From Deltaproteobacteria bacterium (lineage in GTDB: Bacteria; Desulfobacterota; DSM-4660; Desulfatiglandales; B25-G16): 61,375 nucleotides of DNA. A program made the translations under genes and the position numbers. Shown piece by piece: positions 5,245-58,115 of this stretch (positions are counted from its first letter, which is position 1; each line of letters opens with the position of its first letter). Under the pieces are notes generated by a model that made no database searches, had not been told where the DNA came from, and saw only the letters and a list, made by a program, of their open reading frames with translations. The DNA is taken from NCBI GenBank assembly GCA_019310725.1, contig JAFDDT010000004.1, forward strand, positions 1-61,375, written 5' to 3'.

Positions 5245-5548
5245 GGTCTCTTGGCTAGTCTTTTCCTCCGAAACAGATTATCTACTGTTCATAAAAAGAT
5301 AGCTAAATGATGCATGGTTGTCAAACCAATTATGCGTGTGTGTGGACGATTAATCCGACAAGACACCACAGGATCGTTATCTTTGGGATCATATTGATCG
5401 ATGTCATCCAAAATTTGTTTGCGCCTACTTGATAGCCCAATACCCCTCGCTGCCTGGAAATGACAGACTCACAAAATAACTTATAAGCTCCAGATTATTT
5501 ACTATTGATATTGCGCTTTTTTTCTTATAGGGTCTTAGAGAGTTTTAT

Positions 5549-7012
5549 TTGATAGCAAAGAATATGCGAGCTGAAATGAGCCAGCCAGAGCTGGAGAAAA
5601 GATTTCTCCCTTTTGCAAGAAAGATGTCAGACGAGGGCATACCTCCTCTCATTATCGATACCTTTAAGTTTTACTATGGGAAGCTTCTGAGTGGGGAAAG
5701 GGGGTTTATATCCAGAGACGACATTGTTCCGGTTGGAAAAGATGAGATAGCTGATTTGGAGACGCTAAACAGATTCACCGAAGAGGGAGTCCGGGCATTA
5801 AAGGAGGCGGTAATAATCAAACTGAACGGCGGCTTGGGAACGAGTATGGGCCTGTCAAGGGCCAAGTCCCTTATTGAGGTAAAGGATGGATACAACTTTC
5901 TCGACATTATTGCGAGACAGGTTTTGAGCCTCAGAAAAGAACATGAAACAGACATACCTCTGGTACTCATGAACAGTTTTAGTACTGATGAGGATAGTAC
6001 AAAATTTCTTGAGAGATACCCTGAACTGGGCTCTGACATCCCGCTGTCGTTTCTGCAAAATAAATTTCCAAAGGTCCTTAAACAAGACCTCAGCCCTGCA
6101 GTTTGGCCCTTGGACCCAGATTTGGAGTGGAATCCGCCTGGGCACGGGGACATTTATTGTGCATTGATCACCTCTGGCATGCTGGACAAGCTGATTATGA
6201 GAGGCTATCAGTACGCCTTTATCTCCAACTCCGACAACCTCGGGGGCACAATGAATGTGGCAGCACTCGGTTACCTAGTCTCCAACGACTTTCCTTTTAT
6301 GATGGAGGTTGCGGAGAAGACAAAAGCAGACACCAAGGGCGGACACATAGCCCGGCTGCGGCAGACTGGCGGACTTGTTCTCAGAGAGATAGCCCAGTGT
6401 CCTGAGGAAGAGATAGGGGAGTTTCAGGATATAGAGGTGTATAAATATTTCAATACAAATAATATATGGGTCAATCTCGTATTTCTAAAAGACCAGCTAA
6501 AAGAGCCTGGAAACATTTTTAAATTACCGGTCATTGTCAATCCGAAGAGAATTAGTTCTAGAGATGACTCATCCCCCGAGGTTTACCAAATCGAAACGGC
6601 TATGGGCTCTGCTATCTCGATTTTTGAAAGGTCCGCAGCTGTAAAGGTACCAAAGACACGATTTGCTCCCGTCAAAAGGTGCCAAGACCTTGTTGCACTC
6701 ATGTCGGATTGCTATGTGATGACAGAAGACAGCGGGGTTATACAAAACCCTCAAAGGCGACTTGGGGATATAGAGATCGATCTCGATGATAGGTATTACA
6801 GAAAGATAGACCAATTGCAGGAAAGATTTCCCCATGGTGTCCCCTCACTGGTTGATTGCAAATCGTTCAAAGTGGAGGGAAATGTTTACTTTGGGAGGGG
6901 AATTGTGATAAAGGGAGACGTGACTATTACCAATCCTTTGTCAGAGCGGGTTTCAATCCCTGAAGGCGCAGTAATTGATAAAGATTTGCTTTTTGACAAA
7001 AATTTGACATAA
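5549..7012 (+). CDS. UDPGP-family (eukaryotic-type) UTP--glucose-1-phosphate / UDP-sugar pyrophosphorylase
   Basis: KLNGGLGTSMG nucleotide-binding loop, NPPGHGD, and a 487-aa length typical of the UDPGP family. The real start may be the ATG at 5564 rather than the TTG at 5549. Confidence 0.75.
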   Translation: MIAKNMRAEMSQPELEKRFLPFARKMSDEGIPPLIIDTFKFYYGKLLSGERGFISRDDIVPVGKDEIADLETLNRFTEEGVRALKEAVIIKLNGGLGTSMGLSRAKSLIEVKDGYNFLDIIARQVLSLRKEHETDIPLVLMNSFSTDEDSTKFLERYPELGSDIPLSFLQNKFPKVLKQDLSPAVWPLDPDLEWNPPGHGDIYCALITSGMLDKLIMRGYQYAFISNSDNLGGTMNVAALGYLVSNDFPFMMEVAEKTKADTKGGHIARLRQTGGLVLREIAQCPEEEIGEFQDIEVYKYFNTNNIWVNLVFLKDQLKEPGNIFKLPVIVNPKRISSRDDSSPEVYQIETAMGSAISIFERSAAVKVPKTRFAPVKRCQDLVALMSDCYVMTEDSGVIQNPQRRLGDIEIDLDDRYYRKIDQLQERFPHGVPSLVDCKSFKVEGNVYFGRGIVIKGDVTITNPLSERVSIPEGAVIDKDLLFDKNLT

Positions 7013-7020
7013 AATACATC

Positions 7021-7872
7021 ATGCCGGACAGCGACCTGCAGAATATTGAAAAGACAATCAAGGCGATCCAGAACATTGGTATTATGCTCGATGGTGCCAC
7101 TGAGTTTGTATGTGAAGAAGGGGTGCTTAAGAGATTCTCAGGGTATATAGGAGCCTATCTCAAGAAACTCGAAACGGATATCGCCTCCCTTAAGAAGAAA
7201 TTTCCAGGAAAGTTCCCAGAAACACCAGAACTGGATAGTTCCTTATCAAGGATTAAAGGTATCGCTAAAACACTGAGAAGAGGTAAAAGTGATGTTGAAG
7301 AGAAATGCCGGGGCGGAGATCTGGGTCGTGAATTAACGACAGAAATCATCGAGCTAAGAACCAGTGTCCAAGATATCTCGCAGACTGTTAGTGGTAAGGT
7401 TTCGGGATACTCAATTGCTGACAGAATTGCAGGCCAGGGAGGGAAAGTAGCATCAGCGCTCTATTATCTTTCCCCTTTCGCCCCCGTTCCACGGAAGGTT
7501 ATTCTTGCAGCGCTAGCGGTCGCTCTTATAGGTTTTGGATATCTTTTTTTTACCATGGAATCGGAAGATGCCTTGATTCGGAGCATCAGAGATGATGTTG
7601 CCTTTCTGCAAAAGCAGAAAAAGGCGATCTCCGCAAAAAAGCACGAATATAGGGAGATCAAGGCAGAGATTAAAACCCTTGATAAACAAAATCTTAGCAG
7701 GAAGGATAAAATCAAATTGCTCAGCCTATCGGTGGAGGAAAGGAAAATAGCGGAATTCATTGAAAAAACAGCGGTTTTAATAGAAAATAGAGAAACAGAA
7801 TTGGCGGAGAAAAATAAAAGGTTAGAAAAGCTCCAAAAAAAATCATTCTTTCAAAGGTTGTTAAAGAAGTAG
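7021..7872 (+). CDS. Hypothetical coiled-coil protein with one central transmembrane helix
   Basis: 283-aa ORF with a hydrophobic segment (ILAALAVALIGFGYLFF) followed by a Lys/Glu-rich heptad-like region. No recognisable catalytic motif. Confidence 0.5.
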   Translation: MPDSDLQNIEKTIKAIQNIGIMLDGATEFVCEEGVLKRFSGYIGAYLKKLETDIASLKKKFPGKFPETPELDSSLSRIKGIAKTLRRGKSDVEEKCRGGDLGRELTTEIIELRTSVQDISQTVSGKVSGYSIADRIAGQGGKVASALYYLSPFAPVPRKVILAALAVALIGFGYLFFTMESEDALIRSIRDDVAFLQKQKKAISAKKHEYREIKAEIKTLDKQNLSRKDKIKLLSLSVEERKIAEFIEKTAVLIENRETELAEKNKRLEKLQKKSFFQRLLKK

Positions 7873-7931: not shown

Positions 7932-8903
7932 TCATATCATGAAGCCATGGAAATCACTCTTTCCCCTCTTTCTTGCGAAAACAGACCAGTTATTACAATC
8001 TCGTGTTACCCGGACACTTACCGATTGATGAGAAGGGGCATCACTGTAAGACACCGTTAGGGCGGCAGCCAACTCTATGCCTTCCACAGAGAGGTTCCCG
8101 GTTGCCAGAACGGTGGGTCCGGGAAATGACTCAACTCGAAACATCGTATCTGCTTCCTTTCTCAAAGAGCTAATCACCTCGTTTTCTTTCTGGTTTCGGC
8201 CCACTACGATCTTGGCGTTCTTGCTCAGCCTAAAATGCCTTCCTAACCTAAGAAGTTCTACATCTCGCCTTGAGAAATCCGGGTTTGAAGATAGGAGGTC
8301 TTTGAGACGGCGGGAAAATACCTTTTCGGTTAGAAGACATCCCCCAGCAGGAGCCGGGTAGTCTTCTATACCAAATTTCTTGGCCAATTCAATCTGTGGC
8401 TGCCGAGAACGCCCTGAAAGCCCTAATAGCCTCTCTCTTATCACCCAGCCTTTCCTTTCAGGAAGGGTTTCCGGCAATCGTTTTGCTGAAAGGGGCCTAA
8501 GGATAAGATCTTTAAACCCCGACCCATGAGAGATGGTGGAAAGGGATCGTAGACTCTGCGACATGGGGCGTTGGCCCACGACCTCTCCACTTATGATAAA
8601 ATCCGCTTTTTCATTTTTCAACATTTCACCCGCTATCTTGAACATCAACTCATGGCAATCGATACACGGGTTTAATCCTTTTCCATGGCCATGCCTTGGG
8701 TTAAGCACTATCTGGATGAGACTATCTGTGATGTCCACGACCTTGAGAGAAAGCCCAATATAGGGTGCAGACCGGGCAGCCTTGTCTGAGGAGAAAAAAG
8801 GCGCCTCAAAACAGATGCCAACAACACCAAGCCCTTGCTCCTGGATGAGCTTAACAGCCAATATGCTATCTAGACCACCCGAAAAAAGGGCTATGGCCTT
8901 CAT
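7932..8903 (-). CDS. PP-loop ATP pyrophosphatase, tRNA-thiolation type (ThiI/MnmA-like)
   Basis: SGGLDS PP-loop immediately after MKAIALF, and a conserved CIDCH. The likely start is the ATG at 8903 (the ORF track extends to 8933). Confidence 0.6.
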   Translation of the reverse strand: MKAIALFSGGLDSILAVKLIQEQGLGVVGICFEAPFFSSDKAARSAPYIGLSLKVVDITDSLIQIVLNPRHGHGKGLNPCIDCHELMFKIAGEMLKNEKADFIISGEVVGQRPMSQSLRSLSTISHGSGFKDLILRPLSAKRLPETLPERKGWVIRERLLGLSGRSRQPQIELAKKFGIEDYPAPAGGCLLTEKVFSRRLKDLLSSNPDFSRRDVELLRLGRHFRLSKNAKIVVGRNQKENEVISSLRKEADTMFRVESFPGPTVLATGNLSVEGIELAAALTVSYSDAPSHQSVSVRVTRDCNNWSVFARKRGKSDFHGFMI

Positions 8904-39148: not shown

Positions 39149-39586
39149 ATGGCGAATATAAAGGGTTACAACATGCCGGATGAACTGTACTACCATCAAG
39201 AGCACAGTTGGGCCAGGGTAGAAAACGGAAAGGTTACGGTGGGCATGGACGACATGTTCCAAAAGGAGGCAGGTGATATCGTGTTTGTAGATCTCCCTGA
39301 TGAAGAAGATGAGGTCGAGCAGAACGAGGTATGCGGCAAGATTCAATCACGAAAATGGATCGGAAAACTCTGCGCCCCGGTATCTGGAGAGATTGTCGAG
39401 ATCAATGAAGAGTTAGAGGATGATACCTCCCTCATCAATGAAGATCCTTACGGGAAGGGATGGATCCTGGTTATTGAGCCGAGCGATCTGGAAAGTGAGC
39501 TCGGGAACCTTATACATGGAGATGCTCTTATCCCCTTTGTCGATCAAGAGATAAAACGGACTGAGGAAGAAAGGGCAAAGGCCTGA
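39149..39586 (+). CDS. gcvH: Glycine-cleavage H-protein-like lipoyl carrier
   Basis: H-protein pattern HSWARVENGKVTVG. The lipoyl-lysine context SRKWIGKLCAPVSGEIVEINEEL aligns with ESVKAASDIYAPVSGEIV. Confidence 0.8.
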   Translation: MANIKGYNMPDELYYHQEHSWARVENGKVTVGMDDMFQKEAGDIVFVDLPDEEDEVEQNEVCGKIQSRKWIGKLCAPVSGEIVEINEELEDDTSLINEDPYGKGWILVIEPSDLESELGNLIHGDALIPFVDQEIKRTEEERAKA

Positions 39587-40650
39587 TGACTTCATGGAGG
39601 CTTTTCAAGGATACAGTAAATCCTGTTTCAACAGCCTTGGGTCTTTCCATTGATGATACCCTTCCCCTATCCTTATCCCAACATGGTTCACCACCAATTC
39701 TTCACCTTTATATTTTCAAACCGTCAGCCATTGTTGGAAAATATCAGGACATAAATGCTGCTCTGAAGCTTGATAGATGCAGGCACAGGCAAATTGAGCA
39801 CAACCGCAGGAGTACCGGTGGTGGAACAGTAATAATGGGTCCGAAGGTGGTTGCCCTGGGTCTGGGTATTACCTTCGACCACCCTGGTTTAAAAGGAGGA
39901 ATTAATGGCATATTTGAATCCCTGAGCACTGTCTTGATGGATGCTTTGCAGGATTTTGGCATAAAGGCCGGGTTCAGGCCCAAGAATGACCTTGAGGTAC
40001 ACGGTCGAAAGATAGCAGGTCTCTCTGCATCTCTGGACACAGAAAAGGCGATTCTGTTTCATGCAAGCCTGCTCGTGGATTTTGATATCTCCCTGATGCT
40101 GGACATTATGCATCAACCTTCCCTGAAACTCTCTGATAAAGGCTATAGCTGTTTCAGCCAGAGGATAACTACCATCAGAGAACAATTGGGCTGTGATATA
40201 GATATGGACACTGTTGTTGCCGCCATAGAAAACGCCTTCATCCAAAAATTTGATATTTCCTTTGAGGTGGATGGGCCTGACACGTGGGAGAAAAAGAGCA
40301 TACAGGAGTTTTTTACCACTCGGTATACAAATCCCGATTGGATCTTTTCTCACAAACATCCCAGATCGAGCATGGGCGTAAGTGCAGTCAAAACACCAGG
40401 GGGGCTTCTGGAGATATACCTCGCTCTCGCAGGCAACACCATTGAGCATATCATGATTACCGGGGACTTTTTTTCCACGACCAAAGATATCAATCTTCTG
40501 GAGTCCTCTCTCAAGTGGACATCAGCAAAAAGGGAAAAGATTGAGGAACATCTCTCTGAGGTGTGGAGAAACGAGATCATTTATGGGGTCGGTTTCGACA
40601 CGTTGACAGAGGCAATCCTGCAGGCCAAGGAAAAGCTAGTAGCCACGTGA
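39586..40650 (+). CDS. Lipoate/octanoate-protein ligase family protein (LplA/sLpl(AB)-like)
   Basis: RRSTGGGTVIMG and GRKIAGLSAS motifs of the BPL/LPL catalytic domain. The start overlaps the gcvH stop (TGATG). 354 aa. Confidence 0.75.
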   Translation: MTSWRLFKDTVNPVSTALGLSIDDTLPLSLSQHGSPPILHLYIFKPSAIVGKYQDINAALKLDRCRHRQIEHNRRSTGGGTVIMGPKVVALGLGITFDHPGLKGGINGIFESLSTVLMDALQDFGIKAGFRPKNDLEVHGRKIAGLSASLDTEKAILFHASLLVDFDISLMLDIMHQPSLKLSDKGYSCFSQRITTIREQLGCDIDMDTVVAAIENAFIQKFDISFEVDGPDTWEKKSIQEFFTTRYTNPDWIFSHKHPRSSMGVSAVKTPGGLLEIYLALAGNTIEHIMITGDFFSTTKDINLLESSLKWTSAKREKIEEHLSEVWRNEIIYGVGFDTLTEAILQAKEKLVAT

Positions 40651-40662
40651 AAAAGAGAACAG

Positions 40663-41715
40663 ATGGTTGCTGACCGCATAAAACAGAGCCCAGACTATGC
40701 AAGGATAAGTAGTGCCACTGCCATGTCTCTGGGTCTGTCTCATGGGAGATTTTACCGAGGGGCTAGAAATCGATGCGCAAATCTTCTTGTTCACTACAAC
40801 GAGGGATGTGCAGCAAATTGTGCTTACTGCGGCCTCGCAAAAAAAAGAACGGGTTCGTATAGGGAAAAGAGCTTCATTATGGTTCAATGGCCTCTCTTCT
40901 CTATGGATGCCATTATTGAGGCTATCAACGCTTGTCCCAAGTATGTCAAGAGGACCTGTATTTCCATGATCACCAATGGCAGATGCCGAAGAGATACCAT
41001 CGCTATGATTCAGCGACTCAAAAAGGAGACTGCAATCCCGATCTCCATCCTTATAAGCCCAACAGTATTGAAGATTGATGATCTCAAAGCAATGAAAGAA
41101 AGCGGTGCAGACAAGATTGGTGTCGCTATTGATCTGGCCACCCCGGAGCTTTTCGATCTTTACAGGGGAAAGGGGGTGTCAGGACCTCACAAATGGGCTA
41201 AATACTGGCAGACCGCGGCCGATGGCCTTGAGGTCTTTGGTGAACGTAATGTTGGAAGTCACCTCATGGTAGGCATGGGTGAGACTGAAAAGGAGATGGT
41301 TACCGTTATGGAAAGGCTTTGGAGCATGGGGGTTGTAAATCATCTCTTTTCGTTTTTTGCTGAACCCAATTCCAAACTGGAAAACAGAAAACAGCCACCG
41401 TGGCCCACCTATCTGAGAATTCAGCTTGCGCGCTATCTATTAGAAGAATGTTCTATCTCGGCATTCGACATGGATTTCGATAAAGATGGACATATTAGGA
41501 ATTTTGGTCTACCAAAAGATGATTTGACTCATATCATCAACCTGGGCACCCCGTTTATGACTGGTGGATGTCTGGATGAGGATGGCGAAGTTGCCTGCAA
41601 CAGACCTTTTGGCAACTGCCTGCCCGGAGAAAAACAATGGAATTATCCATACCCGCCTAATGAAGAGGAACTAAACCTGATTCAAAATCACATCTTCACC
41701 ATAGATCCAAATTGA
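40663..41715 (+). CDS. Radical SAM protein (biotin/lipoyl-synthase-related, LipS-like candidate)
   Basis: The CAANCAYCG (CxxxCxxC) cluster motif about 50 aa from the N-terminus. 350 aa. Directly downstream of the ligase gene. Confidence 0.6.
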   Translation: MVADRIKQSPDYARISSATAMSLGLSHGRFYRGARNRCANLLVHYNEGCAANCAYCGLAKKRTGSYREKSFIMVQWPLFSMDAIIEAINACPKYVKRTCISMITNGRCRRDTIAMIQRLKKETAIPISILISPTVLKIDDLKAMKESGADKIGVAIDLATPELFDLYRGKGVSGPHKWAKYWQTAADGLEVFGERNVGSHLMVGMGETEKEMVTVMERLWSMGVVNHLFSFFAEPNSKLENRKQPPWPTYLRIQLARYLLEECSISAFDMDFDKDGHIRNFGLPKDDLTHIINLGTPFMTGGCLDEDGEVACNRPFGNCLPGEKQWNYPYPPNEEELNLIQNHIFTIDPN

Positions 41716-47845: not shown

Positions 47846-50515
47846 TTAACTTTTAGCTTGCTTTGGTAAACTAGAAAATCTTCGATTTACGAATTCAATC
47901 TCATCTTGTCTCGTTATAACCTCGCCTCCCAACTTGGCCTCCAGGATGCCGTCAAATATATCCTTGAAAAGGGGACCCGGTTCATAACCCATTGCAACGA
48001 GATCCTTGCCCTTCAAATAGACCCTTGTTCCTTTAAGTCGGGAGAAAAAGGTGGATATGGATTTCTGTATCTTTTCACTCTTGGTTTTCGCCATACTAAC
48101 CAGTAAAATTTCGGGAGTAAAGGGTGAAAGAGTTTTGTATAGGGAATAGTTATTCTTACCCTTGAGCTGAGAGAGTTCCCTAAAAGCTATCTTGACCTCT
48201 TGCCGGGTGGAAATCGCATTTACTATATCTCTGTCTTGAATCTGCATCGTCTCTATTATCTTTTTCAAGGCATCATCGCTCAGAGATGAGATTAACCCAA
48301 GAAAATATACCTTCCATGGTTCATAGGTAATACCCAGGTACAGGAGATTAAACCATACCAAAATACCCTTTGTCCTCTTCAGCACAGCCCTTATCCCCTC
48401 TGTAAGTTTAAGCTCGGGGGAGATGAACTTCAAAAGGTCATAGTCATCCATCCTCTCTAATACCGCAACGGGATCTTCTTCCTGCAAGATCAGTTTTAGT
48501 TCCAGAAAAAGCCTTTGCCCAGGCAAATTCTCAAAGCAATGCACGTTGACAGCATTCTGAATAAGGCTTTCTGTGAGCTTGCCTATCCGGAACCCAAACC
48601 GTTGCTCGAACCTGATGGCCCTCAAAATCCTCGTAGGATCTTCGACAAAGCTAAGGTTATGAATCACACGCAAAACCCGCTCTTTAATATCCCTCATAGC
48701 ACCAAAGTGATCGAGGAGGGTACCATAATGCCCCTTGTTAAGATGAACTGCCAGGGTATTAATGGTAAAGTCTCTGCGAAAAAGATCCCGCTTCAGCGAG
48801 CTTAGCCTAACTTCCGGTGGAGCAGCCGGTGACTCGTAGTGCTCTATCCTGGCAGTTGCGACGTCTATCTTAAAGCCGTCTGGCATAATCACAACCGCTG
48901 TTCCGAACTTAGGGTAACTCCTCACCCTGGCCTTCTTGTTCTGCGCAAAGGCTTTGGCCAGCTTGATAGCATCTCCTTCAATAACGATATCCACGTCAAG
49001 GTTTTTCCTCTTTAAGATAACGTCTCTTACGAGACCTCCAACCAGATAGGCATTGAAGGCGAGTTCATCTGCCATCTCTCCCAGTTCCTTCAGGAGCGTT
49101 GTGATCTTGACGGGTAACCGTTCTTCAAGTAGGTTTTTGATATTCTTTTCCCGAACAAAGCTCGTGATCTCCTGTGAATCATAAACAAACTCAGGTGTGG
49201 ATGACCTCTCTATCAGTATGTTTAAAAGGTCGGTTCTGGTAATAACTCCGAGCAGCTGGCCGTCTTGCAGTACAGGTAGAATTCTCAGCTTGCTATTGAT
49301 AATCAGATCCTGTATCTCATTCAAGGTAGTTTCAGGTCCTACGTGCCTGAATTCCACATTCATGTACTCTGTTACCGGCCTCATTTCCAGGCCAAGGAAG
49401 ATAGCCCTGTCCACCACCTGCCTGGAGATATATCCCTTGAGGGTTCTATTTTCATCAATAACCATCAACGTGTTGATATTGTACCTGGTCAGGGTATCAC
49501 CTGCCTCTCTCATGGAAGCGTCCGGTAATATGTGGATGACAGGAGAGGTCATCATGTCTTTGGCAAATCTCTCAAAATTGATCCGGTTTAGGAGAAACCT
49601 ATTAAGATCTTCCTCTGCCTGGATGAGGGTTTTATCAAGAATAGTAGCAGAGGCTGCCTGTGGATGTCCTCCACCACCAAAGTCCATGGCAATTTCACCA
49701 ACATTTACCTCTGGAAGCCTGCTTCTCGCAACCAGATAGACCCTGTTCTCCATCTGGGTGAGGGCAAATAAGACATTGAGATTTTCCATTTCCATAAACT
49801 TTTGAACTAAAACAGCAAAATCACCTATATACCGATCTCTCTTGGCCTTGGCTATAACCACTTCAATACCACTGATAGTGGTTCTGGTAGCAGAAGCCAT
49901 CAAATCATTTAAGAGCCAAACCTGCTCAGCGGTCAGCTCTCTGGTTAGCATATCAGAGATCGTATTAAGCGATGCCCCCTGTTCTAGTAGCCAGGCAGCA
50001 GCCTCATGATCTTCAGACCTCGTGGAAGAAAAGGTAAAAGATCCAGTATCTTCATAGATACCGAGTGCCATCAGAGTCGCCTCATCAGAGGTGATTTTGG
50101 TACCCTTTTTCTTGATTATTTCCGTGAGTATTGATGTGCCTGCCCCGAGTTCTTGGATAGCTTCAAAATCACCCTTGATATCATCCTCAGAGGGGGGATG
50201 ATGATCATATATGTGTATCTCCAATTCTTTCTTGCCCAATAGCTCTTTAAATTTGCCTATCCGCCTTTTTTGGCGTGTATCTACCAGGATGAGCCTCTTG
50301 ATGCTATTAAAATCAATATCCTTTATACGGAGGAAATTAAAGAGATAAGAGGTTGAGTGCAGAAAGAAATTCCTCAGATTCTTTTCCTGGGCACCGGGAA
50401 ATACCATTTTTGCCTCGGGGTAGAGCTTTTTTGCGGCCAACATGGATGCCAAGGCATCAAAATCGGCATTCATATGGGTCGTTATTACCTCGATGCACGG
50501 TGCCTGTTTTGTCAT
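47846..50515 (-). CDS. DHH/DHHA1 phosphoesterase - CBS pair - poly(A) polymerase/CCA-adding tRNA nucleotidyltransferase fusion
   Basis: N-terminal DHH (THMNADFDALAS, DHH at IYDHHPP), GGGH of DHHA1, two CBS motifs, then LVGGLVRD...DVDIV and RRDFTINTLA nucleotidyltransferase motifs. The ATG at 50515 overlaps the upstream stop as ATGA. Confidence 0.85.
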   Translation of the reverse strand: MTKQAPCIEVITTHMNADFDALASMLAAKKLYPEAKMVFPGAQEKNLRNFFLHSTSYLFNFLRIKDIDFNSIKRLILVDTRQKRRIGKFKELLGKKELEIHIYDHHPPSEDDIKGDFEAIQELGAGTSILTEIIKKKGTKITSDEATLMALGIYEDTGSFTFSSTRSEDHEAAAWLLEQGASLNTISDMLTRELTAEQVWLLNDLMASATRTTISGIEVVIAKAKRDRYIGDFAVLVQKFMEMENLNVLFALTQMENRVYLVARSRLPEVNVGEIAMDFGGGGHPQAASATILDKTLIQAEEDLNRFLLNRINFERFAKDMMTSPVIHILPDASMREAGDTLTRYNINTLMVIDENRTLKGYISRQVVDRAIFLGLEMRPVTEYMNVEFRHVGPETTLNEIQDLIINSKLRILPVLQDGQLLGVITRTDLLNILIERSSTPEFVYDSQEITSFVREKNIKNLLEERLPVKITTLLKELGEMADELAFNAYLVGGLVRDVILKRKNLDVDIVIEGDAIKLAKAFAQNKKARVRSYPKFGTAVVIMPDGFKIDVATARIEHYESPAAPPEVRLSSLKRDLFRRDFTINTLAVHLNKGHYGTLLDHFGAMRDIKERVLRVIHNLSFVEDPTRILRAIRFEQRFGFRIGKLTESLIQNAVNVHCFENLPGQRLFLELKLILQEEDPVAVLERMDDYDLLKFISPELKLTEGIRAVLKRTKGILVWFNLLYLGITYEPWKVYFLGLISSLSDDALKKIIETMQIQDRDIVNAISTRQEVKIAFRELSQLKGKNNYSLYKTLSPFTPEILLVSMAKTKSEKIQKSISTFFSRLKGTRVYLKGKDLVAMGYEPGPLFKDIFDGILEAKLGGEVITRQDEIEFVNRRFSSLPKQAKS

Positions 50516-51069
50516 TGCTTTTTCTGATGTTTTCGGCGCCATCTGTAAGGTCTTTCAAATGGTGGCTTGGGAGATTCCTGAGCAGCCTTTAATATCCTTT
50601 CTGCAAGCACTGGGAATCCGTTGTCTCCGAAATAGGATATAGTTTCATATGCTAATCCAGCCCTGATCAAACGGATAGCCAAAAGTTCCTCGTCAACAAA
50701 TACATGCGCAAGAAGCCGGCCATATTTATCTTTTTGAAATGGAAGATATTCAACAACTTTGGCATTTCTCAAGAGATCTGCAGTCATTGCTGCCGCCTTT
50801 AGGCCATAAGGCTGATCCTCAAATATCCCGTGTTCCTTATGGATAATCTCCGGTGCATCTATGCCCAGAATCCTTATGACAAAATCCTTATAGAAAAAGG
50901 TATCTCCGTCATCAGGGCGAATAGCTGATTTGTCAATCCTGATAAGGCTGTAATGTTCCCCCCGCCCTCCTTCAGCCCAAGGGTTTGAACCCCACTTTTT
51001 TAAAAAAACCGAAAGAAGACCCAAGGCAATTAATCCGGTGATGAGAATGTACCTTCGACGAGATAACAA
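50512..51069 (-). CDS. Staphylococcal-nuclease-like (SNase/thermonuclease) protein with N-terminal membrane anchor
   Basis: RILGIDAPE and YGRLLAHV SNase motifs. Hydrophobic N-terminus. Confidence 0.75.
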   Translation of the reverse strand: MLSRRRYILITGLIALGLLSVFLKKWGSNPWAEGGRGEHYSLIRIDKSAIRPDDGDTFFYKDFVIRILGIDAPEIIHKEHGIFEDQPYGLKAAAMTADLLRNAKVVEYLPFQKDKYGRLLAHVFVDEELLAIRLIRAGLAYETISYFGDNGFPVLAERILKAAQESPKPPFERPYRWRRKHQKKQ

Positions 51070-56531: not shown

Positions 56532-57104
56532 TTATATCATCTCCAAAAGGGATTTGATCATTGCGTCCTGGTCCTGAGAAACCATTTTGAAGGTTACGCC
56601 AATTCCCTGCGCACTGGTCCACACAACCTCGCCGCTAATCTTGATGTATTTCTGGTAGTTTGGGAGCGGAAAGGTCAGTGAAACCTCCTGACCAGCAGAG
56701 AAAGGCATTTGGGTTTCGATAAACACCCCTCCGGCACTTATGTTTTGGATGAAGTCTTTGTAGCCACGATCCTGAGCAGCATAGTCTACAACCATAAAGA
56801 AGGGTTTCCGGTAATGCTTCCTTTTCCCTTTGAGTACCTTCCCCTCTAAGTCTTTCAAGAGCTTCTGTTGTTCATCTTCAGGCATGCTCATGATTAGTTC
56901 GAGCAAGCGATCGGATACACGAGGGGCTGAAAGATCGGTGTCAGCAAGCCTATAGAGTCCACGAGAGATTTCAATAAGTACTCCCTCATCGCGGAGTCCA
57001 TAAAAGGTGCGCCTATGCATACCCTCTGCAAGAGCCTCACGGGTACGAATGAGTCCACCTCTTTTTTGAATGGCTTCTATGGCCTTTTGTCGAGCCGATT
57101 GCAT
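56532..57104 (-). CDS. AbiEi-like winged-helix N-terminal domain fused to a PilZ domain
   Basis: The N-terminal part GGLIRTREALAEGMHRRTFYGLRDEGVLIEISRGLYRL is the AbiEi_4-like pattern. The C-terminal PilZ motifs are KRKHYRK (RxxxR) and NISAGG (D/NxSxxG). Confidence 0.65.
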   Translation of the reverse strand: MQSARQKAIEAIQKRGGLIRTREALAEGMHRRTFYGLRDEGVLIEISRGLYRLADTDLSAPRVSDRLLELIMSMPEDEQQKLLKDLEGKVLKGKRKHYRKPFFMVVDYAAQDRGYKDFIQNISAGGVFIETQMPFSAGQEVSLTFPLPNYQKYIKISGEVVWTSAQGIGVTFKMVSQDQDAMIKSLLEMI

Positions 57105-57110
57105 AAACAA

Positions 57111-57140
57111 ATGGTACAAAAACTTGACATTATTGTCAAG
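57111..57140 (-). promoter_or_regulatory. Promoter with palindromic operator; probable leaderless transcript
   Basis: On the minus strand: TTGACA (57139-57134), a 17-nt spacer, then TACCAT (57116-57111). The ATG at 57104 follows 6 nt later. The -35 lies inside the perfect palindrome CTTGACA-N4-TGTCAAG (57123-57140). Confidence 0.5.
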
Positions 57141-57254
57141 TTTACTCCTGATTTGGTACAAACTATTTCAGGAGAAGTTGCAATAGCTGTCCCGCGATCT
57201 TTTGAGCCGTGAACGTGTACGCAGTATTGTTCATGCCAACACTTTTGAAGGATG

Positions 57255-57968
57255 CTAATTTTCTTGGCTCTGGCTCGATTTTCGAAATTGCACCGTTATC
57301 CAGATGATGACCTCGGGTTTTTCAGAGTAATTGGTTTTTAGTTTCAGAACGCCGCGGTATGTTCCTATGTTACCTGGAATGCTCGTGAAATGAATCCTAA
57401 AGTCTTTCCCTGATTCAAGCTCTTCTATTCTGTAGGTCACCTTTTCACTGAGGCTAAATTGGCTCTCCTCAAGGGTCAATGCTTTGTCCATACAAGCTCT
57501 AACAGCAACTGTTTTGGTCAGTTTTCGATCCGCCTGACCTCTGAGATAGACACGCCTGGCGGAAAGAAAGATGGGTACCTTTACAAAGGCCTTAATGCTT
57601 ACTACTTGAAACCTTCCGCTTGGCTCATTGGTGTAAACTCTGGCTCTTTTCAGGAGATTTCCCCTGTAACCCTTTGTCTTTACCCTTAGCGTGATCTTTC
57701 CCTCCTCTCCAGGGGGGATAAGCCTGTCAAAATGGGCTACTGCGCAACCTCAACCAGGTTGCACCCTCTTTATCTGGAGGGGTTGATCTCCCTTATTAAG
57801 CACGGTAAAGCTGTGCCTAATAATTTCGCCTTCTTTGACCTGCTGCGCATCAAAGAGGGGTTTCTCTATAACCATTCTTGGCCCAATAGTTTGCTGAGCG
57901 CAAACTGTTGAAAGGTTGAGACTGATCAGAAAGATCAGAAAAAAAGTATCATATAATAGCTTTTTCAT
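57255..57968 (-). CDS. Secreted DUF1573-domain protein with in-frame TGA at the CGC-motif position (candidate selenoprotein, or a pseudogene)
   Basis: Signal peptide MKKLLYDTFFLIFLISL. The ORFs 57750-58064 and 57255-57491 plus the segment between them form one frame (714 nt from the ATG at 57968). The junction reads LQIKRVQPG-TGA-GCAVAHFDRLIPPGEEGKITLRV, which parallels the DUF1573 pattern ...SCGCT......PGe.g.i.v. Confidence 0.6.
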
Positions 57969-58115
57969 CCGTCTGCCCTTGTCAAGAAACACCATAACAA
58001 TCACTCCTCTTCTTATTGGTGAATTGGCGGGGATTCCGTTTCCGCCTCTCCAGTACATCTCCACGCAATCTTTCCGCCTTACGTGTAAATTGAAGGCCTC
58101 GATCGCCTCATATTT

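Follow-up and report, generated by a model that had tools for sequence, protein, structure and literature searches.

An OS_HP2/DUF1573 family gene of the Desulfobacterota with an in-frame UGA very probably decoded as selenocysteine

The window analysed here is a stretch of 61,375 nucleotides of deltaproteobacterial DNA (contig JAFDDT010000004.1). On its minus strand, positions 57968..57255 translate as a single frame of 238 codons, MKKLLYD ... SQSQEN, closed by a TAG (57257..57255) and broken by one internal stop only. This stop is a TGA at 57752..57750, codon 73, followed by GGT TGC and lying in the context IKRVQPG-U-GCAVAHFDRLIPPGEEGKITLRVK; the frame contains no further stops and no frameshifts. 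A first-pass annotation had described a 714-nucleotide frame with a single TGA, and its coordinates and sequences are correct, with the strand being minus; a plus-strand reading of the same positions has stops throughout and was discarded. Gene finders would call two ORFs at this locus, 57750..58064 (minus strand) and the segment downstream of the TGA. The features are as follows, with positions marked + counted from the U of the UGA as 1.

57255..57968, minus strand: complete OS_HP2/DUF1573 selenoprotein gene, 237 residues including the putative Sec73 (frame, PF07610, NF041425, ortholog L001)
57897..57968, minus strand: predicted Sec-type signal peptide, residues 1-24, MKKLLYDTFFLIFLISLNLSTVCA (read from sequence)
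57588..57869, minus strand: DUF1573 / HYDIN-VesB-CFA65-like Ig domain, residues 34-127, first β-sandwich (PF07610, PF22544, NF041425, AF2 model of homolog P0020)
57744..57762, minus strand: local hairpin with the UGA in its loop, not a conserved element (window fold)
57750..57752, minus strand: UGA codon 73, almost certainly read as selenocysteine (ortholog codons, Cys column, TGA a normal stop elsewhere)
57744..57752, minus strand: U-G-C motif Sec73-Gly74-Cys75, presumed active or ligand site (conservation, motif given in reviews)
57721..57738 (+15..+32), minus strand: hairpin H1, AGCC/GGCU around the loop CAUUUUGACA (window fold, ortholog pairing)
57699..57718 (+35..+54), minus strand: hairpin H2, best SECIS candidate (fold and ortholog covariation)
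57279..57581, minus strand: second, C-terminal β-sandwich, approximately residues 130-230 (AF2 model of P0020; no Pfam match)

The family of the encoded protein is well defined. Pfam PF07610 (DUF1573) matches residues 34-127 with an E-value of 1.7e-20 and 73.3 bits against a cut-off of 26.1, bearing out the domain named in the first-pass annotation, and PF22544 matches residues 32-127. Residues 35-129 also align with profile positions 2-97 (of 98) in the NCBIfam model NF041425, "OS_HP2 family (seleno)protein" (E=1.3e-29), where 102.4 bits exceed the cut-off of 100 by a small but positive margin. OS_HP2 was first reported as a selenoprotein family with two members, no Cys homologs found and no SECIS shown (Zhang and Gladyshev, 2007, NAR 35:4952; PMC1976440), and two reviews place a "DUF1573 domain-containing protein" (PF07610, motif UGC) among the known prokaryotic selenoproteins. 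The earlier proposal of a candidate new selenoprotein must therefore be withdrawn, because the family was described in 2007 and a curated NCBI model for it exists. Membership in OS_HP2 is indicated by the NF041425 score above cut-off, the PF07610 domain, the UGA within U-G-C and the TGA-bearing orthologs with conserved flanks. The window protein shares with the family its domain, its U-G-C motif, its deltaproteobacterial (Desulfobacterota) host range and the type of evidence, namely an in-frame TGA, a Cys/Sec pair and a stem-loop downstream. Nothing essential differs in the window copy; the differences are local details, such as PPGEEG where most members have PPGGEG. In comparison with the two members of 2007, the present set comprises 79 Sec forms and several Cys forms, together with an explicit RNA model. 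A search of the accessible literature for functional characterisation of OS_HP2 or DUF1573 returned nothing except listings, and a search for experimental Sec insertion in any family member likewise returned lists only. Anaerobic Deltaproteobacteria are rich in selenoproteins, and this lineage is among the richest known (PMC9312934).

Comparison across the Desulfobacterota shows how firmly the codon is kept. Among 81 orthologous genes codon 73 is TGA in 79 and TGC in 2, a result that answers the earlier proposal to look for orthologs carrying either codon. At 78 of 80 orthologous loci, each assembled independently, the TGA is kept, even where protein identity has fallen to about 36%; the nearest relative, L001, is 91% identical and has the same TGA. 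In the alignment all full-length Cys homologs read PGCGC where the window protein has its TGA codon, in agreement with the earlier view that the TGA replaces the first Cys of a CGC motif. G74 and C75 are present in all 79 Sec forms. Against L001, dN/dS is 0.12 upstream of the TGA and 0.16 downstream; over the ortholog comparisons it ranges from 0.12 to 0.28 upstream and from 0.16 to 0.28 downstream. Close homologs in protein databases are fragments broken exactly at the site: there are C-terminal pieces of 140-165 aa, and the homolog P0047 ends at ...VRPG.

Downstream of the UGA, the best candidate for a SECIS is H2, on grounds of its predicted fold and its covariation. H2 corresponds to the second stem reported in the first-pass annotation, UCCCCCCUGGAGAGGAGGGA, beginning 31 nt past the UGA, and consists of a C-rich arm and a G-rich arm with a GG-containing tetraloop, made from the codons of I-P-P-G-E/G-E-G. 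In the MFE fold of the window, positions 35-38 and 40-42 pair with 47-49 and 51-54 (3+4 bp) around a GGAG loop. In the consensus register, positions 35-36 and 38-41 pair with 46-49 and 51-52, and 96.7% of these are paired over 76 distinct orthologs, a figure to be read in light of the register having been picked on the same alignment later used for scoring, which is circular, and of much H2 pairing being an automatic outcome of the Pro-Pro-Gly-Gly codons. This register has a 4-nt loop, a 4-bp upper stem and two extra pairs past a C·A mismatch; in the loop, N42-G43-G44-N45, both G43 and G44 are invariant (76/76). Compensatory changes at synonymous sites occur at 36-51 and 39-48, and the same two pairs, Watson-Crick compatible and at third-codon positions, are the top covarying pairs when mutual information is computed free of any model. 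Synonymous-site entropy shows constraint confined to the stem: its codons have values of 0.35-0.53, whereas those of the loop, at 0.82-0.84, are close to the gene's other Gly codons (0.84-0.97). In the window copy residue 88 is E, not G (A47), and one pair of the consensus register is broken; an alternative register gives a perfect helix again. RNAalifold on the ungapped alignment recovered a weak, partial H2 only.

The bacterial SECIS consensus has a loop of 3-9 nt, an upper stem of 4-16 bp, a UGA-to-loop spacing of 16-37 nt and a G at loop position 1 or 2, usually then G or U, and a subset of elements lies outside the model (PMC13188914). H2 resembles this consensus (bSECISearch model; E. 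coli fdhF type) in being an in-coding stem-loop soon after the UGA, with a small apical loop bearing a G followed by G early on and an upper stem of at least 4 bp. Loop size, stem size and loop G all agree, but the spacing does not: the loop lies 38 nt (consensus register) or 39 nt (window register) from the UGA, with H1 occupying the spacer. The first-pass description of its hairpins as not canonical thus holds for H2 on spacing, and an Rfam search at gathering and relaxed thresholds produced no SECIS match and nothing else credible.

H1 is also maintained in orthologs, where positions 15-19 with 29-33 are 80.5% paired, with double-sided changes in 4 of 5 pairs and strong synonymous constraint at its codons A78 (GCC in 64/66) and F80. 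It is not diagnostic, because the distant Cys forms L086-L088 show similar complementarity, and its part may be that of a structured spacer separating H2 from the UGA. The combined H1+H2 model, scored on the alignment from which the H2 register was picked, is 89.4% paired, against 51-65% in slid controls, and its covariation score of 0.228 compares with 0.156±0.009, none of 500 shuffles reaching 0.228. It replaced, via mutual information, a first two-hairpin model (H1 of 8 bp, H2 in the window register) with 75.5% pairing and marginal covariation. The other hairpin of the first-pass annotation, GCAACC (57762-57757)/UGGUUGA/GGUUGC (57749-57744) with the UGA in its loop, does exist and has 9 bp in the MFE fold. 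Over 73 distinct orthologs, pairing holds in 93-97% for its C-G pairs -5:+4 and -6:+5 but in only 16-40% for several outer pairs. It was rejected as a conserved element: all that persists is the CC/GG core, which the Pro and Gly codons impose, and similar folding is seen in two Cys forms, L066 and L067. Thus the G-rich-loop stem of that annotation stood up as the conserved H2, while the hairpin around the UGA did not.

Cys-encoding relatives offer a further comparison. The four distant Cys-form DUF1573 genes compared, from two lineages, have no H2, whereas near Cys-form relatives keep both H1 and H2. The expectation that Cys forms would be without hairpins therefore failed for the near relatives and held, in the distant ones, for H2 only. 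In a neighbour-joining tree without bootstrap the Cys forms are nested inside the Sec clade at four places, and, if this tree is right, the hairpins of the near Cys forms are explicable as fossil SECIS elements. The Sec-specificity of the hairpins accordingly rests on that tree and on the four distant Cys genes from two lineages.

The predicted protein has a simple architecture. By inspection, the signal peptide shows KK in the n-region, then a hydrophobic core, and small residues in the c-region, with cleavage expected after V-C-A. The structure modelled with AF2 is that of the Cys-form homolog P0020, not the window protein itself, and has a pLDDT of 89.1. In this model an N-terminal helix (7-25) is followed by a low-confidence linker, and strands 138 to 234 form the second sandwich with pLDDT mostly above 90. 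The C-terminal domain is conserved across all orthologs; in the NaphS2 subclade it occurs as a tandem duplicate. C78-G79-C80 of P0020, the counterpart of U-G-C, forms a short turn between strands 69-76 and 81-85. Structural neighbours of the model are Ig/ASH-like, including 2qsv, and its fold is unlike known oxidoreductase folds; a PDB sequence search gave a chance azurin match only (E=0.3). Cys-form DUF1573 proteins, such as 2qsv of P. gingivalis, share the exported Ig-like β-sandwich, the C-G-C turn, the I-x-P-G-E-E-G strand and tandem domains, and differ in having Cys at the Sec position of the window protein.

Other explanations of the TGA have been considered. The UGA could be read through with a standard amino acid and no selenium, by near-cognate Trp or Cys insertion or by lineage-wide reassignment. 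No selA, selB, selC, selD or tRNA-Sec was found within the 61-kb window or the fetched flanks, nor any other selenoprotein gene; downstream hairpins could stimulate read-through in general, and the SECIS spacing is slightly beyond consensus. Yet TGA is the normal stop for 12 of 39 long ORFs within the window, which rules out a genome-wide reassignment, and codon 73 alternates with Cys codons only, the classic Sec/Cys pair. The family is moreover curated as selenoproteins, the lineage is among the most selenoprotein-rich known, and the invariant loop GG is typical of SelB-binding loops. Reading with a standard amino acid is consequently considered quite improbable, and the Sec-decoding machinery of the host is assumed from the lineage and the conservation of the UGA.

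Still less probable is an arrangement of two products, in which an exported peptide of 72 residues would end at the UGA and the remainder would have its own start at a GTG or ATG just past the motif. Database gene calls for orthologs do start at a Val or Met codon four residues past the TGA, and ribosomes might conceivably respond to the MFE structure that surrounds the UGA. The TGA, however, falls within a single Pfam domain (residues 34-127) and within a single predicted β-sandwich; a signal peptide is present on the N-terminal piece only, and in the Cys forms both parts belong to one polypeptide. The G-C that separates the TGA from the putative restart is invariant (79/79), and no initiation codon is conserved there, the supposed start being Val, Met, Ala, Thr or Ser depending on the ortholog. 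A pseudogene or a sequencing or assembly error, in which the TGA is a disabling mutation or miscalled base in a Cys-encoding DUF1573 gene, is suggested by the look of a lone in-frame stop and by the single base separating TGA from TGC, which two orthologs have, but is effectively refuted by the identical TGA at 78 of 80 independently assembled loci to about 36% identity, L001 (91% identity) included, by the otherwise unbroken frame and by a dN/dS past the TGA (0.16-0.28) as low as upstream.

Selenocysteine thus remains the preferred reading, as it was in the first-pass annotation, and is upheld by TGA in 79 of 81 orthologs, low dN/dS on both sides and the conserved H2. On this comparative evidence codon 73 is almost certainly decoded as selenocysteine. 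There is every reason for confidence, short of certainty, that the gene is a member of the described OS_HP2/DUF1573 selenoprotein family whose UGA is decoded as Sec via a downstream RNA element. In the proposed mechanism, SelB bound to Sec-tRNA(Sec) would recognise the downstream element and insert selenocysteine at codon 73. The element recognised would be H2, with its N-G-G-N tetraloop 38-39 nt past the UGA, and H1 would probably act as a structured spacer. The product would then be exported through its N-terminal signal peptide and would comprise two Ig-like β-sandwiches, with Sec73-Gly74-Cys75 in a tight inter-strand turn of the first domain.

The gene neighbourhood gives some hints of function. 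The common ortholog arrangement is Rex - OS_HP2 - RNase H, with Rex upstream and RNase H downstream at 37-40 of 81 loci. The window copy has an HD / PilZ-AbiEi neighbourhood common only to L001 and L004, and Cys-form relatives have the arrangement MauE/DoxX - DUF1573 - rhodanese. A thiol or sulfur-handling role fits MauE/DoxX and rhodanese beside the Cys forms and Rex beside many Sec forms. Vicinal Cys-Sec and CXC redox motifs include the C-terminal GCUG of mammalian thioredoxin reductase, and CGC peptides serve as PDI mimics. The likeness to these lies in a chalcogen pair 0-1 residue apart in a flexible turn, where a small-ring Se-S bond is possible; in contrast to thioredoxin reductase, the window protein has an Ig-like fold, is neither a flavoprotein nor thioredoxin-like, and would be exported. 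Most likely, the Sec/Cys pair would be a periplasmic redox-active selenenylsulfide centre or a soft metal/chalcogen binding site.

A broader reading can be offered only tentatively, and is rather unlikely to hold in all its parts. The family may use a distinct bipartite bacterial SECIS, with a spacer hairpin from 11 nt past the UGA and then, made from the I-P-P-G-G-E-G codons, a hairpin of a C-run and a G-run whose tetraloop, with its invariant GG, lies 38-39 nt downstream. Jointly with this, it may carry an uncharacterised periplasmic Sec-Gly-Cys centre on an exported Ig-like scaffold, serving redox chemistry or the binding of soft metals or sulfur species rather than acting as a thioredoxin-fold oxidoreductase.

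As a discovery the gene is of small value, the family, the U-G-C motif and the Sec/Cys pairing being already in the literature and in NCBI annotation models, and for this reason a Sec-aware pipeline would name it. Its practical value is as an annotation check. Nearly all close homologs in the protein collections searched are recorded as fragments starting or ending at the Sec codon, which means that gene calling in metagenome data gets this family wrong systematically. Modest additions are the 79 Sec forms with several nested Cys forms, a covariation-backed RNA model slightly beyond the bSECIS consensus, a confident two-domain Ig-like structural model, and the neighbourhood hints from Rex and from MauE/DoxX with rhodanese.

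The gene at 57255-57968 forms a single frame of 238 codons (MKKLLYDTFF...SQSQEN*) with exactly one internal stop, a TGA at codon 73 in the context ...IKRVQPG-U-GCAVAHFDRLIPPGEEGKITLRVK. The first-pass annotation had described such a frame with one internal TGA, and this was borne out on the minus strand, the plus-strand translation of the same interval containing many stops. The relevant features are:

57255-57968, minus strand: OS_HP2 (DUF1573) gene
57752..57750, minus strand: internal TGA
57762..57744, minus strand: hairpin GCAACC/UGGUUGA/GGUUGC, with the UGA in its loop
57718..57699, minus strand: stem UCCCCCCUGGAGAGGAGGGA of hairpin H2, starting 31 nt past the UGA
56532-57161, minus strand: gene directly downstream of OS_HP2, an AbiEi_4-type winged-helix N-terminal domain fused to a C-terminal PilZ (c-di-GMP binding) domain

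Once Cys is put in place of the stop, the protein matches PF07610 (Pfam DUF1573; E=1.7e-20, residues 34-127), confirming the membership proposed in the first-pass annotation, and further matches a HYDIN/VesB/CFA65-like Ig model related to DUF1573; the TGA falls within the DUF1573 domain. A search of a 5.8-billion-protein collection returned 49 homologs. The full-length ones, which are more distant (41-47% identity), all read PG-C-G-C with Cys in the TGA column of the alignment, as expected from the earlier proposal that the TGA takes the place of the first Cys of a C-G-C motif. The close relatives (53-77% identity) are all fragments of 130-170 aa limited to the C-terminal 54-68% of the query; the C-terminal fragments in the alignment all begin with whichever Val or Met codon comes first past the TGA site, and the N-terminal fragment P0047 ends exactly in ...VRPG. 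In public protein collections, close homologs (P0001-P0041 and P0047) are with few exceptions fragments that start just past the Sec codon or end at it; automatic gene finders therefore mis-call the family systematically.

The protein also scores 102.4 bits with the NCBIfam model NF041425, 'OS_HP2 family (seleno)protein', whose curated cut-off is 100. OS_HP2 was one of six new selenoprotein families reported from deltaproteobacterial symbionts of Olavius algarvensis (Zhang & Gladyshev 2007, PMC1976440); at that time it comprised two members with a TGA, Cys homologs were lacking, and the paper had no SECIS figure for it. Two prokaryotic selenoproteome reviews, citing that study, include 'DUF1573 domain-containing protein, PF07610, motif UGC' among the known families. 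The proposal of a new selenoprotein therefore does not stand; the gene is a member of a family known since 2007 and covered by a curated annotation model. In the literature found on 'OS_HP2' and 'DUF1573' the family appears in lists, and no functional study or experiment was among the results.

Species-representative genomes, scanned once, gave 80 loci, hosted by Desulfobacterota-type MAGs and the cultured strain NaphS2 and by no others, with ortholog protein identity down to ~36%. The aligned codon is TGA in 79 of 81 genes (window included) and TGC in two (L066, L067). The nearest ortholog, L001, belongs to 'Deltaproteobacteria bacterium bin73' (chromosome CP070673.1, 5.09 Mb); it has TGA at the same codon, is syntenic with the window, and encodes a protein 91% identical to that of the window. 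Nei-Gojobori dN/dS against L001 was 0.12 upstream and 0.16 downstream of the TGA, and 0.16-0.28 against five more distant orthologs. Purifying selection is equally strong on either side, so translation continues in the same frame past the TGA. A mechanical ORF listing cuts the frame in two at this codon; the reading as two independent genes split there is effectively excluded, as are a pseudogene mutation and an assembly error as the source of the TGA. A genome-wide reassignment of UGA was rejected since TGA ends 12 of the 39 long ORFs of the window. This gene very probably does encode a selenoprotein.

The bin73 chromosome carries two OS_HP2 paralogs, L001:6001-6711 and L058:6001-6651, both with TGA; the second matches the window protein at 49% identity. 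The subclade of the window copy (L001-L013, L016) has variable neighbourhoods, as if relocated. In the NaphS2 subclade the selenoprotein is ~350 aa long (L061:6001-7050, L042:6001-7047, L053:6001-7008; also L039, L051, L064), the C-terminal β-sandwich being tandemly duplicated past a Ser/Pro/Lys-rich linker to give three domains with the U-G-C motif unchanged.

Neither selA, selB, selD or tRNA-Sec nor a second selenoprotein gene was found in the 61,375-nt window or the examined locus flanks, so the presence of Sec machinery in the host is presumed from the conservation pattern and from the published standing of anaerobic Deltaproteobacteria among the most selenoprotein-rich organisms (PMC9312934). 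A TGA-read-through scan also flagged 39586-41715 (plus strand), where genes for an LplA-type lipoate-protein ligase (354 aa) and a radical SAM protein (350 aa) share a frame across a TGA and a 12-nt gap; these look like two ordinary adjacent genes rather than one selenoprotein gene. Elsewhere in the window, DHH/DHHA1, tandem CBS and poly(A) polymerase/CCA-adding head domains are joined in a single 898-aa ORF (47846-50542, minus strand).

Both stems noted in the first pass are present at their positions. Orthologs do not keep the hairpin that holds the UGA in its loop: its CC/GG core alone persists, because the Pro(-2) and Gly(+1) codons fix it, and Cys forms fold alike, so it was rejected as a conserved element. 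For H2, 76 distinct Sec-form sequences were aligned ungapped and codon-registered, with column 1 at the U of the UGA and the alignment extending to +66. In a model-free mutual-information scan the top two Watson-Crick-compatible covarying pairs were columns 39-48 (C-G 57, G-C 5, U-A 3, U-G 3) and 36-51 (C-G 50, U-A 16, U-G 7), all four being third-codon positions. They place H2 at 35-36 and 38-41 paired with 46-49 and 51-52, interrupted by a C37·A50 mismatch and capped by an N-G-G-N tetraloop whose G43 and G44 never vary. H1, a weaker hairpin, pairs 15-19 with 29-33; its base lies 11 nt past the UGA and its loop contains UUUGA. Across the family alignment, from which the H2 register was taken and on which it was also scored, pairing is 96.7% for H2, 80.5% for H1 and 89.4% for the whole structure, against 51-65% with the 3' partners slid. 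The covariation score was 0.228 against 0.156±0.009 in shuffles, none of 500 reaching it.

Normalised codon entropy was 0.11 at A78, 0.41 at F80, 0.46 at I84, 0.53 at P85, 0.52 at G88 and 0.35 at G90, compared with 0.82-0.84 at the two H2 loop codons (P86, G87) and 0.84-0.97 at Gly codons elsewhere in the gene; this synonymous-site analysis agrees with the H1+H2 model. Pro-Pro-Gly-Gly codons are self-complementary on their own, so the evidence for H2 lies in third-position covariation and constraint only. The C-run and G-run of H2 permit register slippage. The window's own MFE register fits the family less well than the H2 model and is the better fold in the window copy itself, where Gly88 is replaced by Glu (A47) and a U42-A47 pair makes the helix perfect, leaving a GGAG loop.

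Cys forms failed as a decisive hairpin-free control, since the nearest such genes (L082/L084, L083, L066) keep both hairpins and L067 alone has lost them. Distant Cys-form DUF1573 genes (25-30% identity) are without H2, forming 3 of its 6 pairs, as many as expected by chance; H1-like complementarity persists in one such lineage, and H1 is therefore not diagnostic. In a neighbour-joining tree (no bootstrap), Cys forms branch from within the Sec clade at four distinct points and all members of the deepest subclade carry Sec, a topology that would fit repeated Sec→Cys conversions with decaying SECIS remnants left behind. In the published bacterial SECIS consensus the loop is 3-9 nt long with G in its first two positions, the upper stem has 4-16 bp and the UGA-to-loop distance is 16-37 nt (PMC13188914); H2 agrees in loop and stem, whereas its distance is 38-39 nt. 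No Rfam model matches the region. H2 is thus a slightly non-canonical SECIS candidate embedded in peptide-coding sequence, and a residual point of interest.

The N-terminus reads as a predicted Sec-type signal peptide. The fold was modelled with AlphaFold2 on P0020, a full-length Cys-form homolog of the window protein, and the model is confident (mean pLDDT 89.1, pTM 0.72): a signal helix is followed by two tandem β-sandwich domains, with C-G-C in a short turn between strands 69-76 and 81-85. Foldseek matches of this model in the PDB were generic tandem Ig/ASH-type domains only (ciliary central-apparatus HYDIN-like proteins, titin and P. gingivalis 2qsv, a protein of unknown function), with no thioredoxin or other oxidoreductase fold among them; a PDB sequence search gave no match.

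In 37-40 of 81 loci (L014, L015, L017, L019, L061 and ~32 others, NaphS2 included), OS_HP2 lies directly between genes for a Rex-type redox-sensing repressor (PF06971+PF02629) and rnhA (PF00075). In L061 the order is:

5303-5944: Rex
6001-7050: OS_HP2
7031-7531: RNase H

Frequent companions are genes for a flavin reductase (15 loci) and a zinc-ribbon acidic protein (36 loci), often with a divergently oriented PAS histidine kinase gene nearby. A tRNA-Phe(GAA) gene ~1.8-2.9 kb downstream of the OS_HP2 match start is part of the conserved synteny block in many loci (L020, at 8299-8374; L022, L023, L025, L027, L034, L038, L047, L048, L052, L059, L065, L070, L071). The window copy lies outside the Rex-OS_HP2-rnhA arrangement; its order of lipoprotein, HD-domain protein, OS_HP2 and PilZ/AbiEi-like protein is common only to L001 and L004, and the AbiEi_4-PilZ fusion gene adjoins OS_HP2 in L001, L004 and L071 only. 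Two Cys-form relatives, P0017 and P0018 (L082:1-1362, L084:96-1175), lie between genes for a MauE/DoxX membrane protein and a rhodanese; in L082 the MauE/DoxX gene overlaps the Cys-form gene start by 4 nt. For the Cys branch, these flanks suggest an operon for handling thiols or sulfur. Together, the Rex, MauE/DoxX and rhodanese neighbours hint weakly at thiol, sulfur or redox chemistry, compatible with a putative Se-S redox centre or a putative soft-ligand-binding site. A further residual point of interest is the role of Sec on a predicted exported Ig-like scaffold.
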